Origin: Psammoneis japonica
Taxonomy: Eukaryota
Direction of reading: 5' to 3'
Length of the DNA: 64,000 bases
Assembly (NCBI GenBank): GCA_008632985.1
Contig: QPGO01000005.1
Span: 124,001-188,000, forward strand
The position numbers and the translations under genes are program-made. Of this stretch, positions 1 through 38,315 are shown piece after piece. Each line of letters begins with the position of its first letter. The stretch's first letter is position 1. Under the pieces are notes generated by a model, which ran no database searches, had not been told where the DNA came from, and was given only the letters and a program-made list of their open reading frames with translations.

Positions 1-1406
1 CACCGATTCGGCAGGGAGTTCAAGGGATCCAGCATCAACAACTGCAGATGGCTCACCAACAGATTCCACAACAGACATGGTGGACTTGACAGTCAAGGAA
101 TTGGCATCCGCAGGATCCATCCGAGCATCCACAGTGAGTGCACCTGCAACATGAGACACAACAGCAGCATCAGTGTTGCATGCAGCAGACCCAGCAACTG
201 GGCCCAGCTTGGAGGCCTTAAATCCATGAGAGTGCGAAGGATGGGTCACAGATGCAGCAGGAAGCACAACAGCTTTCCCGCATCCGTGAGTGTCACCGGA
301 AGGGGAAGCATCCTGTTGGCCACAAGCTGGCACATCCTTGAGAAGTCCTTTAGGATGGGCAGTGTACAGAACACTGGTCGGAGGCAGAGTCATGTTTGAA
401 TCTTCAGCAGGAGGGTGAACACTCTTCAACGCATTGGTCACAGCTTGCTCAAACTGTTTTGGACCACCAGGTGAATGAGTGGCTGAGGCCTTGGCAAGGT
501 CTTCAGGAGCAGCACCTGCAGTGGCAGCCGGCCGAGGTGAAGAACTTGGAGCAGAAGAGGAATCCGGGAAAGGAGCATCAGACACATCATCCCAACAATC
601 ACAAGATTGAAAACCAGGACGAAAATGGAGATGAACAGTCCCTGCATGTGTCGTCATGGTGTCATGACCTTCCGAGATCGCTTTGATCACAGCCTTCTGA
701 AGAGTGCTGAGGTTCAGACAAACCAGAGAACCTTGAGGAGCAGCCACAAAGAGAGGAGCCTTGTCAAAGATCGGTCTGATTTGTGCAAGATCTGCAGTCA
801 GTGCAGCTTGAGGGATGATGAGGTTCTGAACGATCTCATGACGGAGAACAGCAACAGCATCGTTCTTTGGGCCTTGAGGGGCAAATCCATCCAAAAGATC
901 TTCAAGAGCAGGGTTCTTGTCTGAATGAAGGGTGTTCAGGAAAATGTGTGCATCGGGTGGGCAATCATGCGGTTTGAATTCAACCAGCATCGTCTTGATC
1001 TTGGTCAAATCAACGGCATTTGGGTTTTTGTTCACCATGGTTGCGAGGGAAAAAATCAAATTCCTGTGCAGAGCTCTGGCATGTGTTCTGCGGTGGTCAT
1101 GATGATCACAAATCAAGAGAGAAAAACAGCTGTGACAAAGATGACAATTTCAACAGAGAAACATCACCAAATCACACAAAGAACGTTGCGATGGATGAGC
1201 ACAGAGGAAGAGGAACAGTGTGCTGCTCCTCACAACCTTGCGGGCTAGTGGCATCGGGACAATCTGACGGACATCTAGGACAGATGACAATCGTGTGCCA
1301 GATGAGAAAGAAAGTGAGCAAAGGAGAGATCATCGGATCTCTCCATGCTGTCTGTGCCACTCTGTCTGACACAAGGGAGTGCACTCCCCATCTCGGATGT
1401 CTGTCA
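1..1406 (-). mobile_element. Copia-like small LTR element, copy A (5' part; runs off the window start)
   Basis: Reverse complement aligns to 11530-~12750, with ~200 bp extra at ~190-410. Has a 169-bp LTR at 1238-1406 followed on the minus strand by PBS-like GGTTGTGAG. Confidence 0.85.
1238..1406 (-). repeat. 169-bp 5' LTR of copy A
   Basis: Same length as, and aligns base-for-base to, 11530-11698 and 14197-14365. Confidence 0.9.
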
Positions 1407-3033
1407 CCTTGTTTTTTCCCTCTGAGACTGCAGGGCTCTGCCAGGCAGGGACGACTCAGAAGTGATGAAAGCTGAAGATGAAGGAAACAGGAGATGTGTT
1501 TTCAACCCAGGTGGGTCACTCGGGGACAATGCACAAGGTTTTCTGTGCATTTCTGCGTGACACGCACTTTTTGCACCACAATCGTGTGCAATTTTCAAGC
1601 TCCCACGCGATGCTGTCTTTTTTTCATGCCTCATCCACAAATCGCGCACACCAAAAATGGCACCATGCCGCTGCCATGAACTCGACCATCCTTGCACCAT
1701 CATCCGTGATGACAAAGAAGGCAAGAATGCCAAAAGAGGTCAACAAGACTGAGGTCAATGTGATGATGTGGTTGAAGTTTTGATTTTTGCCGTTTGTCAT
1801 GTCTTGTGGACAGCCTTTTTCCTCATGACATTTTTTATGCCAATTTTTCTCATCCTCAGATTGCAATGCGGCATTCTTCAACATGCAAGGCTCCACTGAC
1901 TTGATGCTTCACACACACAACAATGCACATCTTTGTGGCACGTCAGTGTGATTTTTGTGATGCATGTGTGGGAGGAACTCAAACAGAGCCACAAGCCAAG
2001 AAAGCAAACAAACCTTTGGGTGCAAAAACAGCAGCCCAACTGCAGCAATGAGCATTTCACAGTTCTTCATGCCAATGACACTGGCATGGCACAACCAAGT
2101 CTTCAAGCTGTTCTCTCCAAGACCAAGCAACCCCAGAAGCTGGCTCAAGCTTGGTGCTTCATCATCAAATGACCTTGGCCACCCAACTTGGGAAGCTGGA
2201 AATCCCTGTCCCATGGAAGTTGGGTTTTGCCCCCCCCCAACAAAAAGGCAGTGCTGCTGTTGTTGTGTGTCACTCGCAAGTCAAGTCCCCCCCCCGTTGC
2301 AGCAAAGGAGTTAAAAATGGCTTTTCATGCCCCCCGCACATTGTTGACATGACAAATGCAGAGCGGGACACTGAGAGACACTCAGCCACTCACCTGTGCA
2401 TGCCAAAGCCCTTTCACCACAAGAATTTGAAGATGAGGGTTGCAACTTTGAGAGCTTGGGTGACATTGATGCAAATGACTGGGGCAATTTGCCTGTGAAG
2501 AAGATGCCAGGAGCAGAGGATCAAAATGACCTTGCCATGCTTGGAGGTGATGGGCTTGACAATGATGCAATGGCGTCAGCTCAAAATGTGCACAGAGGCC
2601 AACAAGCTGGTGCACAACCTTCCTTGAAACAGCAGAAGAAAAAGGAAATTGTCCGCTGCTGGCAAGTTGGCCACCTGTGCTGTCAACCCCACCTCTGAGG
2701 CACAAGTGACAGAGAGAACAAGACAGAACCCACACAAAGTTGTGGCTCAAGTCCACAGACTCACAGCCTTTCTGTCAGATGACACCAATGCCAAAAATGT
2801 GCCCCATGGAGGAGATGATTGAAGCAACAAGCTGGTGGGTTTGCTTCTCCCAATGTGGTCAATCACACAAAAATCCTGTGACATTCAAAGATGATGCATC
2901 CTTCCAAAGTGGGCACAGAGTGGAGCTGCTGGCACAGCAACGAGACTTTGCAAAGTGCCCCCACCCAGCAGCATGTGGCCACACACCATGTGGCACGTGG
3001 AGGGGAGACTCAGAGAAGTCCTTTGAAGAGGTG

Positions 3034-3390
3034 TGCACTGTGCTCAAAGAACGAGTGCAAATGAAAGTAGAGCCAAGCATGAAAAAGTGAAAATCATGAG
3101 ATCAAATTTTGCTCTGTGATTTTTTGTTTCTCCGAACGAGTTCTCAATGGCCCAAAGCTTCTGCACTGCTTCTACAGACAAAAGGCCTTTTGGAGAACAA
3201 CAGATTGTCCAGATGCGATTGCTGTTGACACGTGAGATGTCAACATCATCAATCGATCGCATTTGCAATTTTCGACATCCGATCAAAGCTGTGTGATCGT
3301 TCTGTCCTTTGCACGCATCCACAACTGTGGTGCGATTGACGCACAAACAACACACAATTTTGAATGTGCACATGACAGTTGCACACTGCA
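3034..3390 (-). repeat. gypsy 3' LTR
   Basis: Direct repeat of 11125-11495; TG...CA termini; adjacent PPT. Confidence 0.9.
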
Positions 3391-3419
3391 CTCGCCTCCC
3401 CAATTGCACATTAGAGTCA

Positions 3420-3805
3420 TTCGTTAAGTGGAACAATTCAACGGACATTGACAGTGTCAACAATGTCTCCACATCAACTGCATTGTGCCACTGGCAATGA
3501 CTGTTGTTGTTTTACACATGTGGGCCAGCATGGGGCCATTCCATTTTCTGTGAGCCTTTCTCAAGCAGTGTCTTTTCTCCTGTTCTTTACGGTGCATGCA
3601 AGGAGCACATCGAGCATTTTCTTGAGCATTGTTTTTATTTGTGATTTTTTTGTTTTTGCACTGCTGGATGAATTTCCAGTCTGCGACATGTTGGGTGTCA
3701 AATGTCACATCTCTGAAGACCAATTGTCCAGGTGCAGCTTGCGCAGCAGTGTGATGCGCAGAACGCACTGCAAATGCTGCTGCTGATGACATTCCAGCAT
3801 GTCTT
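3420..3805 (-). pseudogene. gypsy integrase C-terminal fragment
   Basis: SAAAFAVRSAHHTAAQAAPGQLVFRDVTF...NKNNAQENAR...GP...GT...TVNVR matches the recalled gypsy integrase tail (AAFAVRSTYHTTLQATPGQLVFGRDM). Confidence 0.85.
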
Positions 3806-6800
3806 TTGAGAGTGCCTTGTTTGTCTCACGCTCCACACATGCATTTGTGGCATGGAGTGGCGCACTTTCCAAAAGTGCAGTGCACAGTGCTCATCTACAT
3901 GCGGACAAACAGCGCCAGACTCTGCGCACCGAACACAACAAGATTTCACTCATTGCGCACGACAACAGCATGGGAAGTCTGTCATGTCGGGTGTGTCGAT
4001 GTCATTGCACTTCTTGCACACAAAAAATGCATCAATCCACTAGAATGTTGCACACGCGAATTGGATGGGATGCAGGATCTTGCAAATCTGGTGAAAAAAT
4101 CGTCCCCCCGTGCTTCACCGTGTTAAAAACCCCGTGCTGATCCTCCACGATGAATGAAAATCCAACTTTTTGTCAAAATCTGTTGTCGCGTGCTCACTTC
4201 AGTGCTTCATCAATGCAACTGACCAAGAAAACACAAAATGCACCCCAAAAAAAGTGAAAAACAACAGCCCCACTGCGGCCAAAGCGTGATTTCAGTGCCA
4301 AGTTGTGCGCGCCAAAAACCCTTTGTCACCAATGGCTCAACCAGCTCCCAAAACAACTCGATCATTGTCATTTGACATTGACACCTCATTTCTTGTCACA
4401 TCAGTTGTTGTCTCAGTGCATCACAACCTCCCAGCCAATGTCGCGGCATCGTTGCCGTGATGTTTGTGTGTGAAGTGAATTCAAACAAACATCTCTATGA
4501 ATTTTGCAGCACATTTTTATTTGCATGTGTTTTGTGCAGATCAGGCATGTGCACCAAATTTTTGAAAGTGCGCCACTCCATTGCGTCGAGCATTCTCTCT
4601 GACATTCTTTTGTTCATGTGAACACAAGGGCCAACTGTCCTGCTGTTCTTTCATGGTGTCGATTGTACACAGCATTTTGCCCAGTGCTCGATGTGTGCTC
4701 TTAATTGGCGTTCACTCACTTGCTTGTGGATTTCGTGCAGTTTGGCGGGCTTGCTTCACATGCCATGTTGCTCTGCTGCACTGCCACGTTTCTTAACTCT
4801 TTGTTCACCACAGCGACATGCGCGCTTTTTTTTTTTTCGTGAAGCGCAATGCAGCGCACCCAACCAGAAGACAACCAACATGGCACGTCGCCGTTTTCCG
4901 AGTCATTGCAACAGACAGTTTCATTGACACGGCAAAGTGCATTGTGATGGCTTGGTTTGGTTTGTTGTTGCATTGGCGTTGTTTTTGCACGTCTTCACTT
5001 GCTGGCTGTCGTGTCGGCATTTCTTGCATCGCGACAGGTGCGACCGACGGTGACAAACAGAATCGGTGTTGTCGTTTTCGTCGTCCGCAGGATGGAATCT
5101 GGTGGAATGTCAAACTGATGGGCAAGCATGCATCACAATGCTGTTGTTCTGTTGCATTGGATTGTCCTCTTTTGCATTTCACATCCCCCCAGCCAACCCT
5201 TGCTTTTCGTGCCACTGTTTTTTGCTTGTCAGTGCAAAATCACGGTCGTTTGTGGCATGGGCATGGTGGACGTGGATGTTGGCAAGCATGTCTCTGTGCT
5301 TGCCTTCAGTTCCCTTGACACTGCCATGGAGGATGCCGATTTGGAGTCCTGGGTGGCTCCCACAGCTGCCAGTTTACCTGCAGTGCCATCAAAAATTTGT
5401 GACTGTTTCATCCGTCACTTCTCATTGCGCCAATCAGATCAAAGAAAACAAGGTGGGACGGAATCTGGTGGAATTTCAAACAAACAGGCAAGCATGAATC
5501 ACAATGCTGTTGTTTTGTTGTGTCAGATTGTCTTTTCCCGCATTTCACATTCCCTCAGCTGACCCTTGCTTTTTGTGCCACTGTTTCTTGCTTTTCATAA
5601 AGACAACAGAAAGGCACGTCGCCGTTCGGAGTCATTGCAATCAACTGCGCCCCGACACCATGCGGGGTGATTGTCAACATGGCAAGGTGCATTCTGATGG
5701 CTTTGACTGGGTTGTTGTTGTGCTTTTGATGCATTTTCAATTCATGGTTTCTCACCGGCTCTTGTCGGCATTTCTTGCATCACAACAGGTGCGACCGACC
5801 GAGGCTGACAGAATCCGCACTGTTGTTTTCGGCATCCTGCTGACAGAATCTGGTGGAATGTCAAACAAGCAGGTGAGCACACAACACTGTTGTTTTGTTG
5901 ATTGGGAAACCCAACAAGGAAACACTGGTTGTTGCAGTTGAGGATTCGAAAGCAGTCCGTCACCTGGCACCTGGCCAGAGGGCCCCACCTTTGACTTCAG
6001 AGACTCGAGTCCTGGAGCCAACTTGAAAGACGAAAGCTCGTGCATGATTGTGAAATGACAAATCCATGCAGCTAAAAATCACAGACCCAACACACTGCAT
6101 GCTGTTTGTTGTTGTTGACAAACCTGCGTTGGTGCGCAGTGCCGAGGCACAAAAAACATGCGTTAGCACGTGATGCCGAGGTGTGACATGAAATGCATTG
6201 AACAGCAAATGACAATGGAAGAGACAACAGCACAAACTTGCTTTAAGTTGAAAAAAGCGTGCATGCAACTGCCGGCATCGCTTTCACCCCCCATCCACAA
6301 TTCAAATCCAACAGTGCCAAACACAACAACCGTTGCCAAAAATGTTCTTTCCAAAGGAAGAGCGACTTCTTGACAGTGGTGTGCATCCTTGCCATTCCTG
6401 TGGCATCAGCACTGACACCTGAATCTGAGTGACAAGCATTGCTGTTACAGTCCACTGCCACGCCATCAACGGCACTGTGCTCTCCATGCAATTCTAACGC
6501 AACAAATGAGCGAAGCCAGAAACACGCGTCAGTGCGTCAGTGTGTGATGCCAAGGCATTGCATGAAATGTGTTGAGTGACAAACAATGACAATGCAAGAG
6601 ACAGCAATGTAACTTGCTTTGGTGCCGAAACAGAAGCTTGCCTGCCTCTCTTTCGCCCCCCTTCTGTTGTTCAAAGCACAACTCACACCTCCTCCAATGT
6701 CTCAAACAGCAGCAACAACAGCAACTTTGTGAATGCAGTCAAATTGCTGCAGCAGAAGAAGCGGCAAGAACAAGAAGCACATCATTGAAATCAAAAATGC

Positions 6801-8760
6801 AATTGGACGATGGAAGACATCACCTGCTGTGGTGATTCTGTCACATCAGCGAAGACAATCACATCATTGCGGCTTTTGGCGTTGGCGCCGATGTGCCTTG
6901 TGTGTGGCGCAGTGTTGTGAAAAAAATGTGCGTCTGCACGACCACGCGAAAAAATCAGTTCCAATCCGTTGCGGCAAACAAAGAGCCAAGCAGTGATTGA
7001 TGATGGTCAAGGACATGACCATTTCATCTTGATGATCAATCCTGCGATGGTTGTGAGTTCCATTGTGGATTTTTTGCACTTCAACCATCTGTCAGTTGGA
7101 CTCCAATCATTGTTTGGACGTTTCTTTTTGACATGCCGGTGTCATTTTGTCACTCCGAAGGCGCTGCTTTCATGCACTGGTGGACAAATGATGTCCATTT
7201 TTCTTTTCTTTTTTCTGAATCTTTTGCACATCTCGTGTGTCGACATGACAAGTCATTCATGTCTTGCCTCATACATTGTGCAGCACAGCCATGCGGGTGT
7301 TCTGAGATTGTCTTTTGCCAGTGTGAAGTGGATGCTGCAATGTCGTGTGCCAATCTGTCACAGAGTTTTTTTCTAACCGTCCTTTCACAAGGCGATTTTG
7401 TCCTCATGACATGAGCATTTTTTGATCTCCCTGGCCTCCACGAAAAGTGTTCGCATGATGTGTCGCGTCCGACAATTTGGAAGGAATGTCTTTGTCCCGT
7501 TTCAACTGCAGGACATTGTTGCAGGATTCAATTTTTTTTATAGCAAGTCGGCTGATCATGTCGATCGACAACATTTCGGGAGACCACGGGAAAACAGGGC
7601 GTCCGCCCAGACGGTGTGCAATTTTACCTTGTTTTCCGTTGAACAGTGTGTAACATAGAAGAGAAGGACATGTGCATTCAACGGTCGGCTGTCGCAAAAA
7701 CTTGCGCGCGCTTTTGCTCGGACGTCTGACGTGCCAGCAGTTCTTTTTTAACGGATCGCCGAAACGCGTGCCGTTCGAGCAGTCATTTTTTACCGGACGG
7801 TAAAAAAATAGCATTGTTTTTTACCGTACGGTAACGGAGACGTTAAACTTTTGCCGTTGAGGCAAATCAAAACCCTCTCGGTTTCAGCATGAGAGCCGAC
7901 GGACGTTTTCCATGCTGACGTTTGTCTTTGAGCGTTCCACATCCTCCGCCCTCCGCCAAGCATCCGATCATCATACGAAGCCCTAAGGGAAGAAAGAAGG
8001 ACTCAGTATAGGCCATGGTGGTTTTTTATGGCATCAGAGAGCGATCGCTGATGCTGTGTGCGAACAGTATTTTTACCGGACGACGCAAAGTTGAGCCGTT
8101 CAAGCTGTTTTTTTTTACCGCACGACTCAACGTCAAGCCGTTCTCGCCAATGTTATTTAGCGAAATCGCCAACACAAACTTTTTTAGCGATTGTTATTAC
8201 TGCCCACATACAAATTCTACATAAGCCCTTTAAAATATATTTAATAACTTCTTTTCACAAATGTCCGAAGAACAACAGCCATTCAATTTTCCCATGCTCT
8301 CCGGAATTTTATAAGTGTTTTCACTATGGACAGAAGTTCTTTTTTCCGTTGTAACGTATAATAAAGAAATTTGTGTATGATAACAACATAGTTTTTGATT
8401 TGATGCGCTCCACATTTTCGGAGACTTTTCGTTCCGTACTTGCACTTTTGCCGTTTGACCTTTATTGAGGTGAATCTGGCTAGCATTGTGCAGGAGATTG
8501 TTGAGACTGCATGTCTCGACAGTGTCAATGTATGACGATGAGTTGTCGCAGTGTTGTTTGCATTTTTCTCGTGTTGCGATTGCTTGAATCGCCTCCGTTT
8601 CCTTTGCAATCGAATGCATGTCGTTGCGCATGGAAGTCTTGACAGTTTATTTCAAGTTAAACAGTGAAGGACTTTCTGTTGTTAACCTTCAAAGCAACTG
8701 TTCTAGTCGTGTAAATGCCGTGTTAAGCTGTTGCTTGCACAGGTGATGTTTTGAAGTCAC
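3806..8760. mobile_element. Unidentified ~5-kb nested insertion(s) replacing gypsy RT C-terminus, RNase H and integrase core
   Basis: Lies between the truncated RT (~8770) and the integrase tail (~3805). No pol similarity; contains internal duplications. Confidence 0.55.
4866..5900. repeat. Diverged internal duplications (periods ~365 and ~735 bp)
   Basis: GAATCTGGTGGAAT(G/T)TCAAAC occurs at ~5095, ~5461 and ~5846; GGCACGTCGCCGTT...GAGTCATTGCAA at ~4882 and ~5613. Confidence 0.8.
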
Positions 8761-8769
8761 TTTTTGTCA

Positions 8770-11048
8770 GGAACAAACGATCATTTACAGTCGTTCCGAC
8801 AACTTCAAACCTGTCATGAGTTCACTCATGTGTTGCATAAAAATGTCTGGGGCTCTGTGGCTTCTCATGGGAAGTCCATGGCACTCATTTTCTCCCCATG
8901 GCATGAGTTTCGTGTTGGCACGACATGTGCTTTTTTTAATTTGATGCGACAGTGTCCCACATTCAAATCGAGCAAGGTTGTACACATGAACCCTTCTGGT
9001 TTCTGAAGCACACTCTGATCATTTGGCAGAGGATGCAGCACACGTGCTGGCCTCTCACTCAGTTCATGAAAGTCGGACAGAAACTGAGCTTCGACCATTT
9101 TTCTGTTTTTTCAAAGGTTGGAGCTGTCCATTCAGAACAGTTTGTTTTCCTTTGGGACTTTTAGCTTGCAGAGCCTTTCAATCTCCTTGCAAGTCGCCTC
9201 CAAGGCTTGTGGAAACAGGAAGCCTTTCGCGTGATGCCTTCGCTGTGAGGTTTTCTGAGGAGAGCCATCGAAAAGAGATTCAAATCTTTTCAAAGGGAAG
9301 ATCAATTGCTTCTGCTCCTCTGGAGTCAGATGAGTTGCCGCAGCTGTCACATTGTTGAGATTGTCAGCGTGACAATGTGAGTCAAGGACCGTTGGCTCCA
9401 TTGTTGACTCCATTCACGACGTCACATTTTTCAATGTGATTGGCACTCAGCTGGAAACATTGGTTTCGAAGAGTGGATCAACAATCTTCACAGATGCAGT
9501 TGCTTCCTCCTTTTTGATTTCTTCATTTGCACAGTCCACTGTGATTTCAAGACTGGACATTGAGTTGCATCTCATGATCATGTCATGTGGACTTGAAGAA
9601 GAATTCTCATTGTCAACATGCACTGTTTGAATGTCATCATGTCTTGAACTCGCATGGTGAGAACTGAATTTGGTGTCCACTGTCAGTCGTAAAGAGCTCA
9701 CCCAAGTTTTTGGTGGCGGATTCTTGTGTTCTCAACTTTTGCACAAATTTGCACAAAATTGTGGTTGACGATGTTCCGTTGTCGACAGGAACACGCAGAT
9801 GCTTTTTTCTCTCCTTTCCCAAGGAAGTGTTCACATGAATGATGACTCCTGGACCAGCGTGGATCATTTCTGCCTTTTTTCTGGGCTTCCTGACATCCAG
9901 CAAAGCATGTAATTTGTGAATGGACCAAAATTGTTCTTTGGATTCACGCTGGATCATCCAATCAAATTGGTGATTTTCTTCACTGAGGGCATCAGAGTCT
10001 GATTCTTTGCCCTTGTGCTCTTTTTCTTTGCTCGAGGAACTCGCTTTGAGTGTTTTTTTTTTTTGAACTGTCTGATCATTCATGACGTTCAACTCTTTTT
10101 TGCGAGTGGCATTTTCGTTGTTGCGACCCCACGTGCGATTGCCATTTGAACGGCGCCGTTTCGGATCACGCTCAATGTGTCCACGGCGTTCTTTCACTGG
10201 TTCATTTTCAGAACAGCTTCAATCCGTGATGTGGGTGTTCTTTTTTCAAAGATTGCACCTTTTGTTCACTTTGGATTGTTCAGGTGCCACATGGGAGACC
10301 ATTTTTGGAACCAAATTTGGAACCATTTTGGTTTTGGAATCAACTCCGCCATCAGAGCCTGATTTGATGTGGTTTGTTGTCACAGACGTCATGAACGACT
10401 TCCAGACGACTCAAAACTCAATCAGCTCGTCAAAGGCAAGTTCCAACAGTTCAGCATTTTGGACAGCAGGCTGATGCTGCCATCCTTGCGGTGCGAGTGA
10501 CAGCTGACAGCTCACAGCTTGGTTTCTCGCTAGATTCAACTTAGAATCGATTGAAGGGTCGCACAGACGCTCTTCATTGACCTCTTGGGTCCAACAGAGG
10601 CTTTCTTGCTGTCAAGCAGCTCTGGTTTCTTCAGATCGTCTTGAAAATGATGACTCTGATTCTGAAGTGCAACCCTTGGAAAGACATGAGACAAGAGACT
10701 CTTGAGGCACTTTCCAACGGTTCCATCTTGCTCTTTGGACTCGAGACTCGTTGATTCGGTCTCACAAAACTCTCCAACAGTCTCTCCTTGCATGCCAGAT
10801 GCATTTCTTGGACCTGATCAACTCAAGACTTGAAATTCTACCCAACCATGACTTGGTGTGGACATTTCAACAATGCTGTGTGCTTGTGGAGTCCTTGGTC
10901 CTGAGGCACTTGGAATGGATTGTGTTGGAATGAATCCTCTTGTCTTGCAGATGAAAAACAGGGTTCCATCTTGAGGTGCTGCTCGGATTGAGCTGCTTCT
11001 GCTCGGAAATAAATTCCAGCAGAACTGGGGCATTTTGTGCCTGCTCAT
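8770..11048 (-). pseudogene. gypsy gag-protease-reverse transcriptase (N-terminal half), heavily mutated
   Basis: Protease-like LRVPVDNGTSSTTIL; RT motifs FLSDFHEL...LHPLP, EGFMCTTLLDLNVGHCRIKL, PWGENECHGLPM...APDIFMQHMSELMTGL. Confidence 0.88.
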
Positions 11049-11124
11049 GGAAGAATTTACAAAGGCACATCAGTTAAAATTTTCATTTTCTGTGTTTTTT
11101 ACCTTCTGCAGTGTGTGTGCACAA

Positions 11125-11495
11125 TGCACTGTGCTCGAAGAACGAGCACAAATGAAAGTAGAATCAAGCATGAAAAAGTGAAAATTGTGAGATTAAATTT
11201 TGCTCTGTGATTTTTGGTTTCTCCGAACAAGTTCTTGATGGCCTGAAGCTTCTGCACTGCTTCTACAGACAAAAGGCCTTTCGGAGAATGTGGTCATGAC
11301 AACAGATTGTCCGGATGTGATTGCCATTGACACGCAAGATTTCAACATCGTCAATCGATCGCATTTGCAATTTTTGACATCCGGTCAACTCTGTGTGATC
11401 GTTCTGTCCTTTGCACGCATCCACGACTGTGGTGCGATTGACGTGCACCAAACAATGTGCAGTTTTGAACATGCATGCAACAGTCGCATGCTGCA
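11125..11495 (-). repeat. gypsy 5' LTR
   Basis: Direct repeat of 3034-3390; followed by TSD GGTG. Confidence 0.9.
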
Positions 11496-11529
11496 GGTGC
11501 CAGTGTGACACACCTGAGGCGACAAGGAC

Positions 11530-14365
11530 TGACAGACATCCGAGATGGGGAGTGCACTCCCTTGTGTCGGACAGACTGGCATGGACAGCATGGAGAGATC
11601 CGATGATCTCTCCTTTGCTCACTTTCTTTCTCATCCAGTGCGCGATTGTCATCTGTCCCAGACATCCGTTAGATTGTCCCGACGCCGCTAGTCTGCAAGG
11701 TTGTGAGCAGCAGTGCACTGTTTTCCTCTTCCTCTGTGCTCCTCTGTTGCAACACCCGTTGTGTGATTTGGCAATTTTTCTTCGTTGAAATCGTCATCAT
11801 TGTCACAGCCATTTTTTTGCCTCTCGATTTGTGATCAGATGACCACCGTAGAATGCATGCCAGCATTCCATGCAGGAATTTGATTTTTTCCCACGCAACC
11901 ATGATCATCCAAAATCAAAACGCCGTCGATTTGACCAAGATCAAGACGGCACGGGTTGAATTCAACCCACACAATCGCTTGCCCGATGCCCACATTTTCC
12001 TGAATGCCCTTTGTTCGGACGATCCCTGCTCCTGAAGATCTTTTGGATGGACTCACTCCTCAAGGCCTCAAGCGCAATGCTGTTGCCATCCTCCGTCACA
12101 AGATCGTTCAGAATCTTGTCATCCCTGAAGCTGCCTTGACCAAAGATCTTGCACGAATCGGGCCGATCATTGAAAAGGCTCCTCTCTGTGTGGCCACCCC
12201 TCAAGGATCCCCGGTTCGTCTGAACCTCAGCAGTCTTCAGAAGGCCATGATCGAAGCAATCACAGAGAACGACGACACCACAAAGGCATGTGTTGGCACT
12301 TTGCGTTTCCATTTCTGTCCTGGTTTCCAGCATTGTGATTGCTGGGATGACATTTCAGATGATCCGCATCCAGTCCCATGGTCTGCTTCAAGTTCTGCAT
12401 CTCCACTGGTTGCTGCTGCAGGCCCCACTCCTGAAGACTTTGCCAAGGCCTTGGCAACTCATTCACCTGGTCCAAACGAGTGTGGGCAAGCTGTGACCAA
12501 TGGATTGAAGAGCATTTTGAGTTCTCATGCATGCGCTGAGTCCAAGTTGTGCCCAGATCCCACCTCTGCCACCAGTGGCTGCAACACTGCTGTTGCATCT
12601 CGTGGCAAAGATGCGCTCACTGTGGACTCTCGGATGGACCCTGTGGATGACAGTTCCTTGAACATCAAGTCTGCTGTGTCTGTTGTGGAACCGGTGGGTG
12701 AGCCATCTGCAGATGTTGATGCTGGATCCCTTGAACTTCCTGCCGAATCCACAGTCCTTCCTGCTGACGTCCACTCCTGCCCACTTGAGACCCCGAAGTT
12801 TTTTGTTTCTGGCTGTTCCATTGTTCCACACAAAGATGGTCATGTTCACCTCCAGGATGGACTTCCCTCCATTGCCAAGGTCACACCAAAGCTGCTTGCC
12901 ACCTGTGTGCCACTGTCATCTGACACTTGCGGATGCCGCCAGTGCTCTGTTGGTTGTCAAGTTGATTCGCACTCGGATTTTTGGTTTGGCCGTCGTTGGT
13001 TTTGGACACACAGCGCTGCCATTCCTTCCATTGTCCGAACAAGACCAACAGGAGTGGGGCAGTTGTGAAAGAGGGCCACGGAGTCTTGCCACCTTCCGCC
13101 ACTCCATCTCTTTCCTCCATTGTCAGGACCATTGTCGTGTCTAAAAGTGCTTTTCATGGTGCTCCAGACCTGTCCACCATCGCTGACGATGATCCTTTGA
13201 TTCTTGATCAGGGGAGGGCGCATTGTGGCGCAGAGGAAGTGTGCAAGATTGATCAGTGCGCAACAGTCTCCACTGGAAAAATGTTGGGTGACCAAGATTC
13301 GCACGTCACGGAGAATTCCACGACCACACGTCGATCTTCTTCTGACAATGAAGCACTCCAGGCTGTGTTCTGTTTGCTCACTGAGCTTGGAAGCGGGGCA
13401 ACCCAGAAAGAGGGCAACCGCGTCTCGTTGCCTCCCACTGCATCACTTCTGTCCTTCGCCGTCAGGACCGTTGTTGCTTCAAACGGCATTTTTCCTGGCA
13501 CCCCCGACCCATCGACCATCCCTGATGATGACCCCACATTTTTTGATCAGGGGAGGGATCCCCACAGCACAGTGAAAGCATGCAAGGCTGCTGAGCATTC
13601 AGCATTCTTCCAAGATGCCTTCTGTGATGATCACATTTTGCACGCCGTGCGATGCTCACCTTTGATGCGTCACTGTTCTTCCGACGTTGAGCGATTTTAC
13701 GAAGCATTTTGTCTGTCCAATGTGTTTTTCAGGGGCAACACAAAATGTGGCAGATTTTTTGGTTTGTCAGGAGGGCCGCCATTGCTTCATTTTCACCGCA
13801 TCCTTCGCCATGGTGGATTTCCATTTTTTGGCCCCATCTCTTCCGATGATTTTTGGCGACAGCATGACTCGCCAGAATGTCCCGTTGTGGTCGATCATTT
13901 AGGAACTGACAAAATTGTTCTTTGGTGCACAACTCAATTTGTCCAAAAGATTTGTTGGGAGCTGACTTTGATGTTTTTTGTCGAAGACCGATGCATTGAA
14001 CGCGGGATGGATGTTTTAGTCCCGACATGCTTGTCGCTTGTTGGGGTGTTGTCGTTGATTGTTGTCGTGTTTGCGGATCAAGTCTTGGCCATTTCTTTTG
14101 GTTCTTTCTCTTTGTTCCTGCTGTTCTGGTCCTCTCTTTTTATTCGGATCGTCTCTTTCTTTCTTGTTGAGCATTGCATGGCTCATCAGGGGAGGGTGAC
14201 AGACATCCAAGATGGGGAGTGCACTCCCTTGTGTCGGACAGACTGGCACACACAGCATGGAGAGATCCGATGATCTCTCCTTTGCTCACTTTCTTTCTCA
14301 TCTAGTGCGCGATTGTCATCTGTCCTAGACATCCGTTAGATTGTCCCGATGCCGCTAGTCCGTAA
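11530..14365 (+). mobile_element. Complete 2.84-kb non-autonomous copia-like LTR element, copy B (gag-like ORFs, no pol)
   Basis: 169-bp LTRs at 11530-11698 and 14197-14365 (9 mismatches); PBS-like GGTTGTGAGC at 11699; PPT ATCAGGGGAGGG at 14185-14196; near-TSD AGGAC/ATGAC; no RT/INT motifs seen. Confidence 0.88.
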
Positions 14366-15539
14366 ATGACTGACAACAATGACAACGACAAAGGCCTCCC
14401 AGGCAAATTAAATGTTCTCAATGACACAGCCAAAGCAAAGGCTGCCTTTTTTGCCGCTCAAACAAAGTTCAATGACAAAGAACCAGTCAAATCCAACAAC
14501 TCCACCCACTCTCTTCTGGCCACATTCTGTGACAAGAATGTGCTCAAGGTGCCAGAAGTGATGGCAGCCAAGATGAGGAAGACAACATCCTCTTTCTGGA
14601 AACAGCAACTTGGGTGACAAGTGACTTGACCAGTTTGTTGCAAACACACCTTCAAATGACAGGAAAATGAGAGAAAAGTCAAGGCTGTGGTTTTGTCCAA
14701 CCAAGGCCAACAAGAGCCAAGACACAAGCCCCCTTTTGACCCAACACAAATGCCTTCTGGCTTTTCCACATCCTCTTCCAACTTTTCCTCCTTGTCAGAC
14801 TCCAGCATCTCAAGCAGCAGCACAGAGAAGTGCTTTGAACCCAAAGACACATGATGCTCACCTCCCTGTGACAGCAGCAACACTGGCCTGTGTGAGATTG
14901 CTGCTGAGGCAGAGCTCTCCTTCTGAGAAAGACCATCACCAGCCCCTTGTGCTTCCCAAAGATGAGCCCTCTAAAAAAAGAAAGCGTCAGCACTGCAAAA
15001 GTGTGAGAGCACTTTGTCAAGTCTGCTCAGCAAAAGCAGAAAGATTGTCATGAAGGAAGGTGCCTTGAGAGAAAAGCTTCCAACTCAGAAACACCACGTG
15101 GGGTGACCCAAATCAAGAAGAGTGCACACTGCCAAGACCCAACCCTCAAACAAAAACAACATGGCTTGAAATTACATGAGCAATGGGCTGGCATGGAGCA
15201 CCTTTCAAACTGGCACTTTGCTCCAACAGCAGGGACAAGAGTGGCGGCACACGCGCCACAGAGCATGCTGGTGGCTCCTCATCCTTCATCACCAGGAGCT
15301 CTGGACATGAAGTGAGGAGGTGTGGAACCCGTGTCAGATTGCATTGACATGCTCGCGAGCACCAAGTTTTGGAGTTTGCCCCCATGTAAAATCTGGCACA
15401 CTCAGTTTTGAACTCAGCACACATCGACATGGTCATGTCGCAAGGTCATGCCAAGTGCGCAGGCAGCTCAAAGCGAGCAAACGCAATGGAAGACCGTTGT
15501 TCATCAGCTGATGACAATTTTCCGTTCAGATCACCCCTG

Positions 15540-17725
15540 TGGTGGGGGAGCTGTGTGTGTGTTCGTGGTTGCGCACGCACGGCTTCGCCGTGCATTGAGT
15601 TTCAATGTCAATGTCCACATGCATGTGTGTGTTCCACAAGCAAAAATTCCTGTTCCACAGCTCCCCTGAAACTCTGACCACCAAAAACCGAGGGTGCGAA
15701 ACACACTTTTGGCAGCTCCTTTTCTCCGCACAAAAAACACGTGTTTTGATGACTCGACCATGACGATGCCTCGTGGTTCTTCCCCATTGCCTTCCCAGGA
15801 CACCAACCCCACTGATGCCATTGATGACAACACTGATGCAACAGGCAATGTCATTGTTCCGGTTCTCGTGGGTGCGATGCACACCAAATGAGATGCCACA
15901 AACTCACACTGTTGTTTGAACGCTCCACCGCCTCCCACAGATGCCATCACAAATTCCAATGCCACACCTGTGTTTTGGGCCCCCAGCATGCCCGACACTG
16001 TTGCTCCCACCCTTGCTGATGCAGGCACTGTTGACACTGTCATTGGCTTTTGCCAATGACGTCCACAAAGAAATGCCAACAACTCACACTTCTTTCATTC
16101 TCCCCCCACTGCCTGCCACAGATGCTGTCACGAATTCCAATGCCACACCTGCATTTTGGTCCCCCAGCATGCCCAGCACTGTTGCTCCCACCCTCACTGC
16201 TGCAGGCACTGTTGACACTGTTGTTGGCTTTTGCCAACAACGTCCACAATGAAATGCCAGCAACTCACACTTCTTTCATTCTCACCCCACCACCTGCCAC
16301 AGACACTGTCCCGAATTCCAATGCCGCACCTGCGTTTCGGTCCCCTGGCATGCCCGACACTGTCAATCCCACCCCCACTGCTGCAGGCACTGTTGACACT
16401 GTTGTTGTTTTTGCTTTGGAAGGAGCACAATGGATGACAGCGGACCAGGAAACTTGCGCAACCACGGCCTGCCAATGGATGAGTGTTGGTGTCATGGCTC
16501 TTGTGCTTTCTGTGTTTGTTCATGGTTTTCTGGTTTCGGTTCAAGGAAACTTGCAGCCCGTCAGGCAAAGACATGGCAATCAATTTTCAGACATTGCAAG
16601 CGTGAACACCCGTGTTGCACAAGTGTTCAGTGGGCTCTTTGCCTGCCCTTTGCTGGCCTGCAACATCAATGGACGTGAACAGTGCCTCTTGGTTGGCTCT
16701 CGAGTGCAGTCTGATCTTTAGAATGTGCAGACACATCATGCAGTTCTCTGTAAATTAGAAACCTGATGCAGAGCAACAATTAGATGGCAGGCATGCTTTC
16801 ACAGTTTTGTGCCATTTTTGTAAGTTGCTAAAACAGAGGCAGGTGGCAACATGCTTTTGGCAAATGCGCACTGTGTTTGTCACTGTTGGACCTTCAAAAC
16901 TGGTGCCATGCCGACAGCTGTGCTGCTGCTTTGCACACCGGCACCTTCTCTGCCCACATTCCATTGGCTGCATTCTCCTTCACTTGTTGCTGCGGTTCAT
17001 CTTGACACCGAGTCTCAATCACCTCCAGACAGAGGAGGTTCTGCTTGGGAGGCATCCTGAGAAAGCCATCGCCACACCTCCCAGATGCTCCTCTGCCACG
17101 CCCACACCCACGCCCATGCAAGGAGCATTGACCAGCACATTGCTGCTCGCGGAACCCGTGCCTTCGTTGTTTCTTTTGTTTTTTGACATGGTTCAGGAGC
17201 TGCACCCAAGATCGTTTGAGAGACGGCTCATCAGTGCCTTCCACAACACGACGACATGAACGAAAATCGAGTTTCTCCGGGAACGCAATTGCAGGAGCAG
17301 ACCAATCCCCGAGCTGCGTTTGTGTTTCAGGCACCGGATCCGGTGAACAGAAGCACAAATCTTTGTTTGGGTAACGACAGCGGGTGTGATGGCACCGGCC
17401 AATGCAGGAGGGACTGCCGCATCAGACATGGCAGGCGGGGATGCGTCAGGTGGTGCAGGGGACGAAGAACGGGAGGTCGTCATGGTCGAGTCGTCAAAAC
17501 GCGTGATGTTTTGGTGTGCGCAGTCTTCCCAAAAAGTGCGCTTCCGTACCCTCGGTTTTTGGTTGTTAGAGTTTTAGAGGAGAACATGGTTCAGGATTTT
17601 TCCTGCTACTATTAGCATCTGTGTACAAATGCATAAATAAATTTGAGCACATTTATATAAAAATATAATGAATAAGATATAAATCTGCCACGTAACCATG
17701 ACATCACCAGCCATATTCTCCCCTA
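15540..17725. mobile_element. Region bounded by diverged inverted ~130-230-bp sequences (long-TIR element, or two related elements facing each other)
   Basis: 15640-15775 aligns to the reverse complement of 17475-17605 (CCAAAAACCGAGGGT...GTTTTGA(T/C)GACTCGACCATGACGA). Each arm leads into an inward-pointing ATG ACG ORF. No TSD found. Confidence 0.55.
15885..16410 (+). repeat. Tandem repeat, ~3 x 181 bp
   Basis: AATTCCAATGCC at 15952, 16133 and 16314. Confidence 0.92.
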
Positions 17726-36600: not shown

Positions 36601-38315
36601 CAACATGCAAGGGAATTGCCTGCCATTGTCACAGAGTTCTCAATGTCACCAATTTTTTCTCTGAGGAACCCTTGATCTCATCCTCCTGGGAACCCGGTTC
36701 ACCAGAATTGCACATGACTAGAAAGCTGTTGATGAACATGTGCCACTCCTTTTGGGCATTGACATGGCAAAAAAATCTGCATGAACTGACAATCCATGTC
36801 CTTGGGTTTACACTGGATGTGACGCATGACAATGTTGGTGACAAAACATGCACTGTGAAGGTTGTGGGCTTGGTCGTTGATCAATGCTTGGAAATTTTTG
36901 CACTGCAAAAAACGGAAACAACAAGGCTCGCCAGAGACAGGATCATTCAGGTCATTGCTGGTGATGATTGCATGCTCCTTGATGTTGTGGTGAAGCAACA
37001 TGCGGTGACCCTCTTTTTTTCTGTCTCTGCAGGCATTTTGGAGAAACAGAGAGCTTCCTCCAAATTCCGATGTTGAAGAACATCATGTTCACCTTTCAGT
37101 GCCCAGGATTTCTGCATGGACCAACCACAAGTCATGATGCAGGACCAAATGTCAGGGCATCCAAGAGTTTTCCTGACAATGTCACTGGTGCGGATGACTT
37201 CTGCGACATGTGGAATGCAACAACACTTTGGCTTGTGACAAAGGAAGGGAAGGGCAAGGAAGTCTGGAGAGGAGGACCAATTTGTTGTCTCTAAAAACTG
37301 CTTTTTGCATGCATGCACTGAAGTTGTGCTTTTGAGCTTGGGTCCAAAGAGCTCCATTCCAAAACCCATTGGTGAAACATTCCATTTCATCAAAATCACA
37401 CTCATTGGGAAACTGGAAGGAAGGGTCGGGGTTGACCTCGTCGTGGGACTGGGCAAAGTCGTTGACCACCATTGCCAGCAGTCAGTTGTAATTCATGCAG
37501 AATGCACATGAATCACAACAGCACATGCTCCAGTCAAATGAAATTTGGGGAGAGGATGTGCAGTCATGAAACAGGTGGACAATCATGCGTGCAGAACATG
37601 TGCTAAAAATTGGGCAAGGAGCCACGCACTGAAATTCTGGTGGAAAGTGCGGAAGAACAATGAGGCAAGTGCGCATGGGGGATGACTTGGGCATGGAGGG
37701 GATGCCAGAAACCACAGTGGTGCATGTGCAGGGGTGGAGCCAGTGAAAACCACTTTCAAAGAGAACACATCAAAAGAAATGCGGCAATGTCATCAAAACG
37801 AAACGTTTTTTGACATTGAAGAAAAGGTGCACGTGGACCAAATTTGTAAAAACATTGAAAAAAAGCAACAAGAGATGTTGTGAAACACTTGAAACAAATG
37901 CAATGTTCAAACCACTTTGAAGTGCAAAAGCCACAAAACAAAGACAAACTCGCATGACATTCAATGCAACAAATCGGACAAAGGGAAGAGTGAGCACGGC
38001 TGCATTGTGGCCTCTGATGGATGAGACTTCAGCTCTCATGGTCTGTGTTTTTCAAAAATGACATGGCTGGAGAAGCCAAAAGCTGCAGCTGCCAGAGCAA
38101 CACATGATCTTGCCCTGACAAGAAAGAGAAAAACGTGCTGGCGCTTTTGTGCACTCTGAGCTGCCACGAGAAGAACATGCGCGAGCACAGCTGTTTGGAG
38201 AAGGACACACAATCTTTTGGAAATTGGAAAGCACTAACATTCTACTTTTTTTTTAAGCAGAGCTCAGAAAGACACACCTGCTCAACCATTGGTTGCAAGT
38301 GCAGAACAATGCTCT
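30620..38315. mobile_element. TpA- and CpG-depleted block 2; degenerate element(s) of undetermined class
   Basis: Manual count 1 TA and 3 CG in 31801-32400; fragmented Tyr-free ORFs; sharp return to normal composition at both ends. Confidence 0.75.

Follow-up and report, generated by a model that had tools for sequence, protein, structure and literature searches.

Tyrosine codons of a Ty3/gypsy-type retrotransposon relic in Psammoneis japonica and the direction of mutation in its TpA-depleted surroundings

A 64,000-nucleotide stretch of a Psammoneis japonica contig (QPGO01000005.1; hereafter the window) contains peptides resembling a gypsy-type pol in which cysteine or histidine stands where tyrosine would be expected. 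This raises the question of whether these residues belong to the element or record a mutational process, and if the latter, in which direction and on what substrate that process acted. The initial annotation of this locus pointed to LHPLP, FMCTTLLDLNVGHCRI and WGENECHGLPM in the reverse transcriptase (RT) and RSAHH in the integrase, and proposed that ancestral TA had become TG or CA, destroying pol. All four peptides are indeed encoded on the minus strand, with LHPLP and FMCTTLLDLNVGHCRI in the stop-to-stop frame 8868-9110, WGENECHGLPM in the frame 8788-9018 and RSAHH in the frame 3460-3825 (codons 3768-3754).

A degenerate pol between two LTRs

General domain searches did not recover an RT or integrase from this region. 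Pfam families of either kind were absent from 90 ORFs located between 2.3 and 11.8 kb (E<=0.01) and, on repeating the search at E<=10, from 11 pol-region ORFs including the two RT pieces, while phmmer searches with these two pieces against PDB chains returned no RT, only chance matches (Notch EGF, PIT54). A read-through of the pol region with stops as X retrieved two RT fragments (E 7.7e-6 and 2.5e-5) from a set of 1.84 billion representatives, and a family profile that we built from 57 full-length relatives matched the minus strand, and nowhere else in the window, with scores of 76.5, 27.0 and 63.8 bits and its domains ordered PR-RT-INT. Pfam misses the relic because this copy is too degraded, and the family-specific profile alone detects pol. 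The full-length relatives carry PF00078, PF17919, PF17917, PF17921 and PF00665, which we take to be RVT_1, RT_RNaseH_2, RT_RNaseH, Integrase_H2C2 and rve, respectively. In tblastn their identity to the relic's RT part reaches only 26-38%, and a cluster look-up of eight RT relatives gave metagenome records without hosts.

Judged from its sequence, the degenerate minus-strand element is a relic of a Ty3/gypsy-type LTR retrotransposon. Its upstream (5') LTR (11125..11495, minus strand) and downstream (3') LTR (3034..3390, minus strand) are direct repeats, 85-88% identical (88% over 357 aligned columns), with TG...CA ends (TGCACTG...CTGCA) and a 4-bp target-site duplication, GGTG, at 3030-3033 before the 3' LTR and at 11496-11499 after the 5' LTR; the direct LTRs, their termini and the short duplication are those of an LTR element. 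The remnants between them, all on the minus strand, run from 9891 down to 3367 in the order PR-RT-RNase H-INT, with the integrase last. A protease-region remnant (9631..9891) matches profile positions 11-100 weakly in hmmsearch (4.5-7.4 bits; tblastn HSPs 9906-9646), and is followed by the N-terminal half of the RT (8934..9641; positions 99-348, 76.5-79.6 bits), which contains LHPLP and FMCTTLLDLNVGHCRI; across 8934-9891 the observed/expected ratio (o/e) of TA is 0.06. The two RT pieces occupy different frames, the switch falling in a T7 homopolymer (sense-strand A7; 8931..8937), where the tblastn HSPs stop at 8937 and restart at 8931; two contigs of related copies from a public sequencing run are one base shorter at 8931. 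Beyond it lie the RT palm and the start of the thumb (8554..8934; positions 349-475, 27-30 bits), with WGENECHGLPM, the destroyed YxDD region and four in-frame stops. The catalytic YxDD itself is not recognizable, the 'ayiddl' of the profile being aligned to 'RLX--MIV' with a stop, and column 397, a tyrosine in 57/57 relatives, is Leu or Thr in the relic at low alignment confidence; the absence of this motif fits a dead copy. Together with the frameshifts, stops and transversions that the relic also bears, this agrees with the earlier claim that pol had been destroyed.

Downstream of the RT, an RNase H remnant (8290..8400; positions 535-597), which includes KKELLSIVKTLIKFR, still has both TA and tyrosine, with 10 TA in about 110 bp and tyrosines retained at 8377 and 8360. 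The adjoining unstranded segment 7540..8270, in which TA and CpG are normal and 42-nt sub-repeats occur, is unrelated to pol, giving zero profile match between positions 597 and 699. It is multi-copy (summed depth 1880-4478, single-copy DNA being at about 60) and is probably a nested insertion. The integrase is represented by a weakly matching N-terminal/zinc-finger remnant (7173..7496; positions 699-805, 4.4-7.5 bits) and a C-terminal remnant containing RSAHH (3367..3798; positions 944-1085, 63.8-66.8 bits; tblastn 54-58% identity over 45-46 aa). Within the integrase region is extra, unstranded DNA (3834..6995), of which about 745 bp and about 2.2 kb are absent from other copies, the contigs of related copies joining 3833 to 4579, 4789 to 6996 and 4793 to 7016; it is TA-depleted as well (TA o/e 0.03-0.10). 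The data suggest that the family has hundreds of copies at a likeness of at least 90%. For 3000-12000, no RNA data set is recorded as containing the sequence.

Tyrosine columns and the direction of change

At the 22 well-aligned columns with conserved tyrosine, the relic has Tyr once, His (CAY) seven times and Cys (TGY) six times, and all 13 of these His/Cys codons are one transition off TAY. Retention of tyrosine (1/22) differs sharply from that of other residues (182/388; Fisher p 3e-5), as does the occurrence of His/Cys at tyrosine columns (13/22) from that at other columns (18/370; p 1e-10). None of the 18 columns with conserved His or Cys has turned into Tyr, so that the change runs one way. 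This supports the earlier proposal that TA would have been the ancestral state, with TA changing to TG or CA. In the RT, columns 106, 117, 189, 247, 332, 342 and 343 have become H, H, C, H, C, H and C, column 252 is F, column 364 is N (AAT, a transversion) and column 366 is C; in the integrase column 957 has changed from T to A (TCT|GCG) and column 958 from Y/F to H. The eight of 21 lost tyrosines that did not become Cys/His (Phe 3, Asn 2, stop 2, Trp 1) indicate that other decay is mixed in.

The replacements anticipated by the initial annotation on aligning the relic to its relatives were largely seen: besides Y to C/H, isoleucine columns (n=20) show three changes to Met and three to Thr, and leucine columns (n=53) five to Pro and three to Ser, with valine (n=17) giving Ala only once. 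Arginine columns (n=33) show changes to Gln (5), Cys (4) and His (2). The inferred transitions in pol fall in all four classes (G>A 29, A>G 27, T>C 21, C>T 15), with a pronounced neighbor effect: 15/27 unambiguous A>G changes have a 5' T and 15/21 T>C changes a 3' A, placing 30/48 of them in a TpA context, as against 2/29 G>A changes with a 5' T and 0/15 C>T changes with a 3' A in the control contexts. On removing the tyrosine codons the context is weaker (A>G with 5' T 9/21, p 0.07; T>C with 3' A 8/14, p 0.013). The coding DNA of five relatives has a TA o/e of 0.67-1.05 versus 0.06-0.28 in three segments of the relic, implying that the family is not inherently TA-poor. His and Cys derived from Tyr are expected of any transition-biased decay; the weight of the case lies in the near-total loss of tyrosine, its one-way direction, the neighbor context and the comparison of the LTRs.

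TpA-depleted islands and the timing of mutation

The element is part of sharply bounded islands that have 92 TA in 22.4 kb (4.1 per kb, a frequency of 0.004) versus 1539 in 38.9 kb elsewhere in the window (39.6 per kb). In this roughly tenfold depletion (TA o/e 0.02-0.2) AT, AA and TT are not depleted, TG and CA are in excess (o/e 1.4-2.2), and GC is 0.486 versus 0.479 elsewhere. GC-biased gene conversion was rejected as a cause, since the islands do not differ from the remaining DNA in GC and TA alone is lost. The left part of the first island (1..7500, unstranded) has 1-17 TA per kb (TA o/e 0.02-0.24; TG and CA o/e 1.2-2.2), with 1-8 per kb in six bins before 7001 and 17 in 7001-8000, a bin that extends past 7500; the right part (9000..16830, unstranded) has 0-10 per kb and ends near 16830-17372. 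A second, nearly CpG-free island (31000..38230, unstranded; CG o/e 0.06-0.37) has 3-7 TA per kb. Neighboring genes are at normal TA, and one island part is the retrotransposon. Nested inserts, flanks and non-retroelement repeats are depleted equally, as is the single-copy stretch 1835-3061, and a 1.2-kb stretch within the element (7539-8724) keeps its TA despite being multi-copy. In extended context ATAT, ATAG, ATAC and GTAC are erased, and TTAA, CTAA and CTAG often survive. CpG decay to TpG/CpA takes place in these islands too and contributes to their TG/CA excess: CG frequency is 0.025 in them versus 0.056 elsewhere, and 10/15 C>T changes in pol have a 3' G.

Beyond pol, the content of the islands gave little by homology. 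In Pfam searches of 105 long ORFs elsewhere and 78 shorter ORFs of other island parts only host genes were recovered, and no family matched the islands at 1-3 kb, 11.5-17 kb and 31-38 kb, including the ORFs of 31000..38230. No homologue of a 354-aa repeat ORF (12004-13065) was present at E<=0.001 among 5660 near-length candidates, and no deaminase family was detected by Pfam in the scanned ORFs of the window. Bigelowiella natans, an intron-rich alga, was weighed as a possible source of this DNA and rejected: the NTAN1 homologues with a named organism are all from diatoms (6 named organisms among at least 120 matches, best identity 51%), and the genes of the window show long uninterrupted domains. 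The mitochondrial carrier pointed to no informative taxon.

The two LTRs of the single insertion differ by 40 transitions and 4 transversions, and among these differences are 13 double mismatches with TG in one LTR and CA in the other, where 20,000 simulated trials averaged 0.97 and never exceeded 7. From these double mismatches, the change postdates integration and affected both strands. Such doubles number 29, 5, 9, 4 and 1 in further repeat pairs within the islands, and zero in a repeat pair in normal DNA. In keeping with the earlier claim of both strand outcomes and with the near parity of His (7) and Cys (6), the islands hold 2335 TG versus 2279 CA; 500-bp bins show no heterogeneity (p 0.27), nor are there strand-coordinated runs of TG or CA at that scale. 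The LTRs share 10 CG and 2 TA and have 9 sites with CG in one and TG/CA in the other, counts that by themselves do not separate a TA from a CpG ancestor of the doubles; the flanks of 47 doubles are likewise non-discriminating. A polarization of three copies (1201-1420, 11516-11735, 14181-14400) by two versus one is too small, and in part too non-homologous, to yield a spectrum, but has one site that is TA, TG and CA across the copies.

Several other explanations bear on these observations. That Cys and His are native to this element lineage, or that the consensus was misstated, has a vanishingly small chance of being right. In its favor, the FMY column has C or H in single relatives, and PYPLP is a minority state: of the 57 relatives, 45 have Phe at the LHPLP column and 12 have Tyr, which makes that motif ambiguous. 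However, both tyrosines of GYY (columns 342/343) and of KYEY (364/366) are present in 57/57 full-length relatives, and among 122 fetched relatives GYY has YY in 114/114 matched (8 unmatched) and KYEY in 116/118 matched (one HY and one YC; 4 unmatched). This part of the proposed consensus stands, and the closest relatives do not carry Cys/His at these positions; the bearer is, moreover, a relic with stops and frameshifts and without a recognizable YxDD. In WGENECHGLPM the second tyrosine of KYEY did become Cys, but the transversion of the first to Asn had been overlooked. Generic, transition-biased decay with age and no TA-specific process could account for the predominance of transitions between the LTRs (40/44) and for all four transition classes in pol. 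It is nonetheless a very unlikely account of tyrosine lost at 21/22 columns without reverse change, of TA reduced to a tenth at unchanged GC, and of TG-versus-CA doubles far above simulation. CpG methylation-deamination alone, in which Cys/His would come from Arg CGY codons and TA would never have been present, draws on the lowered CG frequency of the islands, the Arg replacements, the 3' G of most C>T changes and the nine CG-versus-TG/CA sites of the LTR pair. We regard it as extremely improbable, given that Cys/His sit at columns that are Tyr, not Arg, in 57/57 relatives, that TA rather than AT, AA or TT is depleted, and that the LTRs share 10 CpG yet only 2 TA in a family whose relatives have normal TA.

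Two further alternatives place the change outside the integrated genomic DNA. Retroelement editing before insertion is known in animals, and an ADAR-like or APOBEC-like activity on the RNA or cDNA could have delivered an already mutated copy; the 5' U favored by ADAR (bioRxiv 10.64898/2026.01.13.699255, in its available text) would suit the TpA context. Such editing should leave the same edits in both LTRs and on one strand only. This is not what we found: the LTRs, copied from one template, have 13 TG-versus-CA sites, the two strand outcomes are equally common, and nested inserts, flanks, non-retroelement repeats and the single-copy 1835-3061 are depleted alike, making editing prior to integration very improbable as the source. 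There is also a slim chance of a base-calling or assembly artefact, in which heavily modified TA in silenced DNA was miscalled, giving TG from one strand and CA from the other, since TG or CA but never CG is the pattern expected of strand-specific miscalls. The k-mer contigs of the public run match island stretches exactly at depths of 59.6-69.9 versus 62.6 for a gene stretch, and one covering 8849-9107 at single-copy depth has 0 differences to the relic, although this sole run with sequence has no platform on record and may be the assembly's own source; strand-split miscalls should have halved or broken the depth. The frameshifts, stops and transversions of the relic also speak against miscalling.

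A TpA-directed process and its known counterparts

In light of the above, we consider it quite probable that the Cys and His residues record, at the coding level, a TpA-specific A:T->G:C transition process acting on the genomic copy after integration. TpA being self-complementary, alteration of the A on one strand would give TpG and on the other CpA; either outcome would remove the target, leaving TG or CA at a site and hardly ever CG. Within sharp-edged islands of transposon and further non-genic DNA, the process would have come close to saturation, with adjoining genes keeping their usual TA. In the RT and integrase it would have converted TAY (Tyr) to TGY (Cys) or CAY (His), and altered ATA, TTA, CTA and codon-boundary T|A sites too, killing pol. 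Ordinary CpG decay to TpG/CpA, as expected for methylated transposons, would have proceeded alongside in the same islands. Of these elements, the data show the direction of change, its TA context, its post-integration timing, the involvement of both strands and the confinement to islands. By analogy with the chlorarachniophyte Bigelowiella natans, the chemistry may be adenine deamination in DNA by a tRNA-A34-deaminase-like enzyme (ADAT2/3); A34 of tRNA, the natural target of the deaminase, is, as far as is known, always preceded by U33. The same analogy suggests defense against mobile or foreign DNA as a potential function.

Targeted A:T->G:C hypermutation at TpA is a newly described means for a cell to disable invading DNA, and its near-saturated footprint in a diatom retrotransposon suggests a greater age or a wider distribution of the process than the report from B. 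natans indicates, affecting transposons besides giant-virus inserts. The footprint holds its own clock in the LTR pair and its own ancestor in the conserved tyrosine codons. Such islands also conceal transposon or viral genes from Pfam-type annotation, which recognized none of the RT pieces here, and the erasure of TAA and TAG inflates spurious ORFs within them.

The closest counterpart is found in mutation-accumulation lines of B. natans, for which 230/231 mutations in two viral inserts are reported to be A>G or T>C, each of them at TpA (bioRxiv 10.64898/2026.01.13.699255). According to the available text of that preprint, reverse-transcriptase Pfams are enriched among its TpA-depleted CDS, and Mettrop et al. 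propose an ADAT2-type enzyme, itself a hypothesis there. The present case shares A>G/T>C change at TpA in integrated DNA on either strand, with the same target dinucleotide, the same two products and transitions only. Further, as far as that text describes them, both have bounded foreign or mobile regions beside normal genes, affected single-copy DNA, clusters of 1-kb windows poor in TpA and rich in CpA+TpG, and RT domains among the depleted sequences. In contrast to B. natans, a rhizarian in which new mutations were observed, the present host is most probably a diatom, i.e. a stramenopile, and the evidence is a fossil signature in one window. Depletion has nearly reached saturation in these islands (TA frequency 0.004) versus 3.3% TpA in the NCLDV region and 9.2% in the virophage region of B. 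natans, and it co-occurs with strong CpG loss, CpG going unmentioned for that alga in the preprint's available text. We found no report in the literature of TpA->TpG/CpA hypermutation in a diatom; it is known from one preprint and one alga.

Fungal RIP is similar in being a post-integration, DNA-level, transition-only and dinucleotide-specific process that ruins transposon copies on both strands of bounded regions and leaves a signature in dinucleotide indices. However, RIP is described as changing C:G to T:A, mostly CpA to TpA, thereby enriching TpA and depleting CpA/TpG (PMC2621366), and the pattern here is the opposite, with TpA erased, CpA/TpG enriched and GC unchanged. Duplication, too, does not look to be required, given the depleted single-copy 1835-3061, or sufficient, given the spared multi-copy 7540-8270, unlike in RIP. 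Diatom transposons are reported to be CpG-methylated (PMC9998398), and methylation-deamination decay, which also operates in these islands, likewise raises TpG/CpA in silenced transposons, but it can neither remove TpA nor make Cys/His from Tyr codons. A-to-I editing by ADAR/ADAT, including the ADAT2-type enzymes reported to act on DNA, resembles the present process in its A->G change and its preference for a 5' U/T, as far as the available accounts go; unlike in ADAR-type RNA editing, the LTR differences point to integrated DNA rather than element RNA as the substrate. The broader reading, to which we would give even chances, is that a diatom TpA-directed DNA mutator of the same kind as that of B. 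natans nearly wipes TpA from islands of transposon and foreign DNA, an adenine-directed 'reverse RIP' defense either common to distant SAR lineages or arisen twice. To such a system this window would add joint action with CpG decay, the capacity to spare a segment inside a target, and a wider sequence preference.

The pol relic and the fate of its conserved tyrosines

The peptides that the initial annotation had attributed to RT and integrase were all located on the minus strand of the window, with RVLHPLPNDQSVLQKPEGFMCTTLLDLNVGHCRIKLKK in the stop-to-stop frame 8868-9110, KLMPWGENECHGLPMRSHRAPDIFMQHMSELM in the frame 8788-9018 and RSAHH in the frame 3460-3825. The two RT pieces lie in different frames, the switch falling inside a T7 run at 8931-8937: tblastn segments stop at 8937 and restart at 8931, and one base is missing at 8931 in two contigs of related copies from a public sequencing run. 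Searches with the RT pieces recovered nothing in Pfam, even at E<=10, and chance matches only among PDB chains (phmmer). The RT frame 9018-8233, read through its four stops as X and searched against 1.84 billion representative proteins, gave two matches at E<=0.001. One of these, the RT-fragment protein P0002, contains FMYATSLDLNMGYYH and LPWGKYEYLRLPMGLCNSPDIFQEKMSELM, indicating that the consensus cited in the initial annotation belongs to an existing family. Among longer proteins, 1877 are related to P0002 at E<=1e-10; many of these are about 1100 aa in length, with PF00078, PF17919, PF17917, PF17921 and PF00665. A pol profile built from 57 fetched relatives, each of at least 900 aa, matched the minus strand of the window at 8934-9641 (profile 99-348, 76.5 bits), 8554-8934 (349-475, 27.0 bits) and 3367-3798 (944-1085, 63.8 bits), with weak matches for the protease and the integrase N-terminal in the expected order and no further match in the whole window outside the relic.

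For each profile position we took the best-aligned window codon (posterior of at least 8) and kept columns that are covered by 40 relatives or more and in which 70% or more of these have the same residue. This filter retained 410 of 774 aligned positions, 183 of them unchanged in the relic. Tyrosine is retained at a single one of 22 Tyr columns, as against 182 of 388 other columns that keep their residue (Fisher p 3e-5); the remaining Tyr columns now read His (7), Cys (6), Phe (3), Asn (2), stop (2) and Trp (1), and the His and Cys codons are CAY or TGY in 13 of 13 cases. His or Cys is thus present at 13/22 Tyr columns versus 18/370 others (Fisher p 1e-10), and the reverse change, Tyr where the family conserves His or Cys, is seen at 0/18 columns, so that proteins do polarize the mutation, with TA as the ancestral state. 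In the GYY motif (columns 342 and 343, Tyr in 57/57 relatives) the relic has H and C; in FMY (column 332; Tyr 40, Trp 8, Phe 4 of 57) it has C; and in the integrase TYH (column 958; Tyr 33, Phe 20 of 55) it has H, with the preceding Thr (55/55) changed to Ala via TCT|ACN to TCT|GCG, where the TA spans the codon boundary. Among 122 fetched relatives G(xx)H reads YY in all 114 matched (8 unmatched) and WGK(x)E(x) reads YY in 116, HY in 1 and YC in 1 (4 unmatched), and hence Cys and His are not the usual state of the family at these positions.

The expectation of Tyr to Cys/His changes does not extend to the eight Tyr columns that became Phe, Asn, stop or Trp, among them the first Tyr of KYEY (columns 364 and 366, Tyr in 57/57; relic N and C), and the LHPLP motif is ambiguous, column 315 being Phe in 45 and Tyr in 12 of 57 relatives. 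The other replacements predicted for TA-containing codons do appear, though unevenly: Ile to Met 3 and Ile to Thr 3 of 20, Leu to Pro 5 and Leu to Ser 3 of 53, and Val to Ala at only 1 of 17.

Where one unambiguous base change accounts for the replacement at a conserved column, we counted A>G 27, T>C 21, G>A 29, C>T 15 and 45 transversions in total; a further 63 columns require two changes, 14 require three and 13 are ambiguous. A 5' T precedes 15/27 of the A>G and a 3' A follows 15/21 of the T>C changes, making 30 changes at TpA, while 9/29 G>A with 5' C and 10/15 C>T with 3' G make 19 at CpG. Without Tyr codons the TpA share is 9/21 for A>G (p 0.07) and 8/14 for T>C (p 0.013). Hence, pol records both TpA to TpG/CpA, which is close to complete, and CpG to TpG/CpA. 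The initial observation is therefore confirmed, and its interpretation as TpA to TpG/CpA change from an ancestral TA stands once LHPLP and the first Tyr of KYEY are set aside and CpG decay is added.

TpA-depleted islands in the window

The values for the whole window (TA o/e 0.39, TG/CA o/e 1.35) are the mean of two states with sharp regional limits. The islands (1-7500, 9000-16700 and 31000-38200; 22.4 kb) hold 92 TA, or 4.1 per kb, with frequencies of 0.004 for TA, 0.210 for CA+TG and 0.025 for CG at a GC of 0.486; the gene-bearing remainder (38.9 kb) holds 1539 TA, or 39.6 per kb, with 0.040, 0.145 and 0.056 respectively at a GC of 0.479. Ten host ORFs have TA o/e of 0.44-0.66, and none of AT, AA or TT is depleted in the islands. 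Three relic segments have TA o/e of 0.06, 0.28 and 0.16 versus 0.67-1.05 in the coding DNA of five intact relatives, indicating that the family is not naturally TA-poor. In four of these five (metagenome loci L001-L004) the coding DNA has a CG o/e of 0.06-0.16 with ordinary TA; hence, their hosts seem to methylate CpG and to lack the TA process.

In the islands CpG is lost together with TpA (31000-38200, also 1-3000 and 12000-17000), most extremely at 31-38 kb (CG o/e 0.06-0.37), TG/CA being the sink common to both self-complementary YR dinucleotides. These three stretches contain no Pfam family, and their 354-aa repeat ORF is without a homologue. Among the 92 surviving island TA, the contexts TTAA, CTAA/TTAG, CTAG and GTAA/TTAC are enriched 1.9- to 5.3-fold relative to the rest of the window, and ATAT (0), ATAG/CTAT (1), ATAC/GTAT (2) and GTAC (2) are nearly absent. 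They give a hint of a target preference that is wider, with a 3' A or a T at -2 disfavoured, given small numbers and original contexts assumed to be like those of normal DNA. Long spurious ORFs crowd the islands in all six frames because TAA and TAG were erased; the window as a whole has 258 stop-to-stop frames of at least 90 aa. In normal-TA DNA, a weak Exo_endo_phos match at 45421-45873 (+) (E 3e-4; 21 bits against a Pfam cut-off of 24.5) may represent a LINE-type endonuclease remnant or a host gene.

Timing, strands and limits of the process

The direct repeats at 3034-3390 and 11125-11495 begin with TG, end with CA and carry GGTG on both outer flanks; they are the LTRs of a single retrotransposon insertion that duplicated 4 bp of its target. 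Its interior exceeds the expected length by about 3 kb: contigs from other copies run directly from 3833 to 4579 and from 4789 to 6996, which makes the intervening stretches extra in this copy. The stretch 7540-8270 consists of 42-nt sub-repeats (TTTTTACCGGACG) and is unrelated to pol, having no match in the profile. Summed contig depth across the element is 160 to 16,600 versus about 60 for single-copy DNA, implying an abundant family.

The LTRs, identical when inserted, are now 40 transitions and 4 transversions apart. At 13 sites one LTR has TG and the other CA, against a mean of 0.97 and a maximum of 7 when the same numbers of changes were simulated 20,000 times. Five further island repeat pairs show 29, 5, 9, 4 and 1 such doubles (for the pair with 29, simulated mean 3.6, maximum 12) and a pair in normal DNA shows 0. 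Each copy therefore resolved the dinucleotide independently, after integration, to either strand's product, and the main cause can thus not be editing at the level of element RNA or cDNA. With 2335 TG against 2279 CA, the islands are balanced between the two products, and 500-bp bins show no heterogeneity (p 0.27). The LTRs still share 10 CpG and 2 TpA, and differ as CG versus TG/CA at 9 sites; alone they cannot separate a TA from a CG ancestor, and hence the protein-based polarization proposed in the initial annotation is needed.

A second, inverted repeat family flanks the element (5-1412 versus 11522-12749; also 1238-1408, 11530-11693 and 14197-14360). It contains long ORFs of 383 and 354 aa, which lack homologues and probably arose artefactually through the loss of TAA/TAG stops; one aligned position is TA in one of the three copies, TG in another and CA in the third. 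Tandem or dispersed sub-repeats occur in the islands at 4927-5905 (period about 366/750 bp) and 15887-16414 (about 180 bp), whose copies diverge mainly as TG-versus-CA doubles (4 and 9, respectively).

Within the relic, 7539-8724 is multi-copy by depth and has kept about 55 TA in 1.2 kb, a normal density, along with a normal CpG content. The RNase H remnant at 8290-8400, next to the 42-nt sub-repeats, keeps its tyrosines; 8400-8724 is intermediate, with Tyr lost at 4/4 columns. A later insertion, a conversion tract or a targeting boundary could account for this sparing. The stretch 1835-3061 is represented by one contig with 0 differences at a single-copy depth of 59.6, yet has a TA o/e of 0.02-0.04, so that present-day repetition at a likeness of at least 90% is not required; conversely, 7540-8270 is multi-copy, yet its TA and CpG are normal. 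Both stretches argue against recognition triggered purely by repetition, as in RIP. Strand-split miscalls of modified bases could in principle mimic the pattern, but these should break or halve k-mer contigs, whereas those of a public run (X1), which contains half of the sampled words, match island stretches at 0-2 differences (8849-9107 at 0) with a depth of 58-70, against 62.6 for a gene stretch. As X1 may derive from the very sample that was assembled and its sequencing platform is not recorded, we retain a small probability for such an artefact.

Relation to known systems

The window encodes an N-terminal asparagine amidohydrolase whose organism-named homologues are all from diatoms (Coscinodiscus, Seminavis twice, Cylindrotheca, a Bacillariaceae MAG and Fistulifera). 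The highest identity among all homologues is 51%, and none of them is the protein of the window itself, so that the host is most likely a diatom to which no closely related species is represented in the collection searched. Diatom transposons are CpG-methylated according to PMC9998398, which fits the accompanying CpG loss in the islands. We found no diatom report in a literature search combining diatoms with TpA, hypermutation, repeat-induced point mutation or transposable elements, and a search on the TpA signature returned one paper (bioRxiv 10.64898/2026.01.13.699255). This preprint describes mutation-accumulation lines of Bigelowiella natans in which two viral inserts received 231 of the 302 nuclear mutations, 230 of these being A>G or T>C changes, without exception at TpA; 124 clusters of TpA-poor, CpA+TpG-rich windows in that genome; and an enrichment of reverse-transcriptase and DDE domains in TpA-poor CDS. 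Its authors suggest that an ADAT2-like deaminase acts on adenine in DNA, and they compare the process with RIP. By analogy, the lesion in the Psammoneis relic would be adenine deamination in DNA, an ADAT2/3-type enzyme might carry it out, and the process may serve as a defence. The phenomenon is not categorically new, having been demonstrated by experiment in another alga in the preprint; its occurrence, close to saturation, in a diatom retrotransposon is nevertheless a new instance of the TpA process, and merits genome-wide follow-up.
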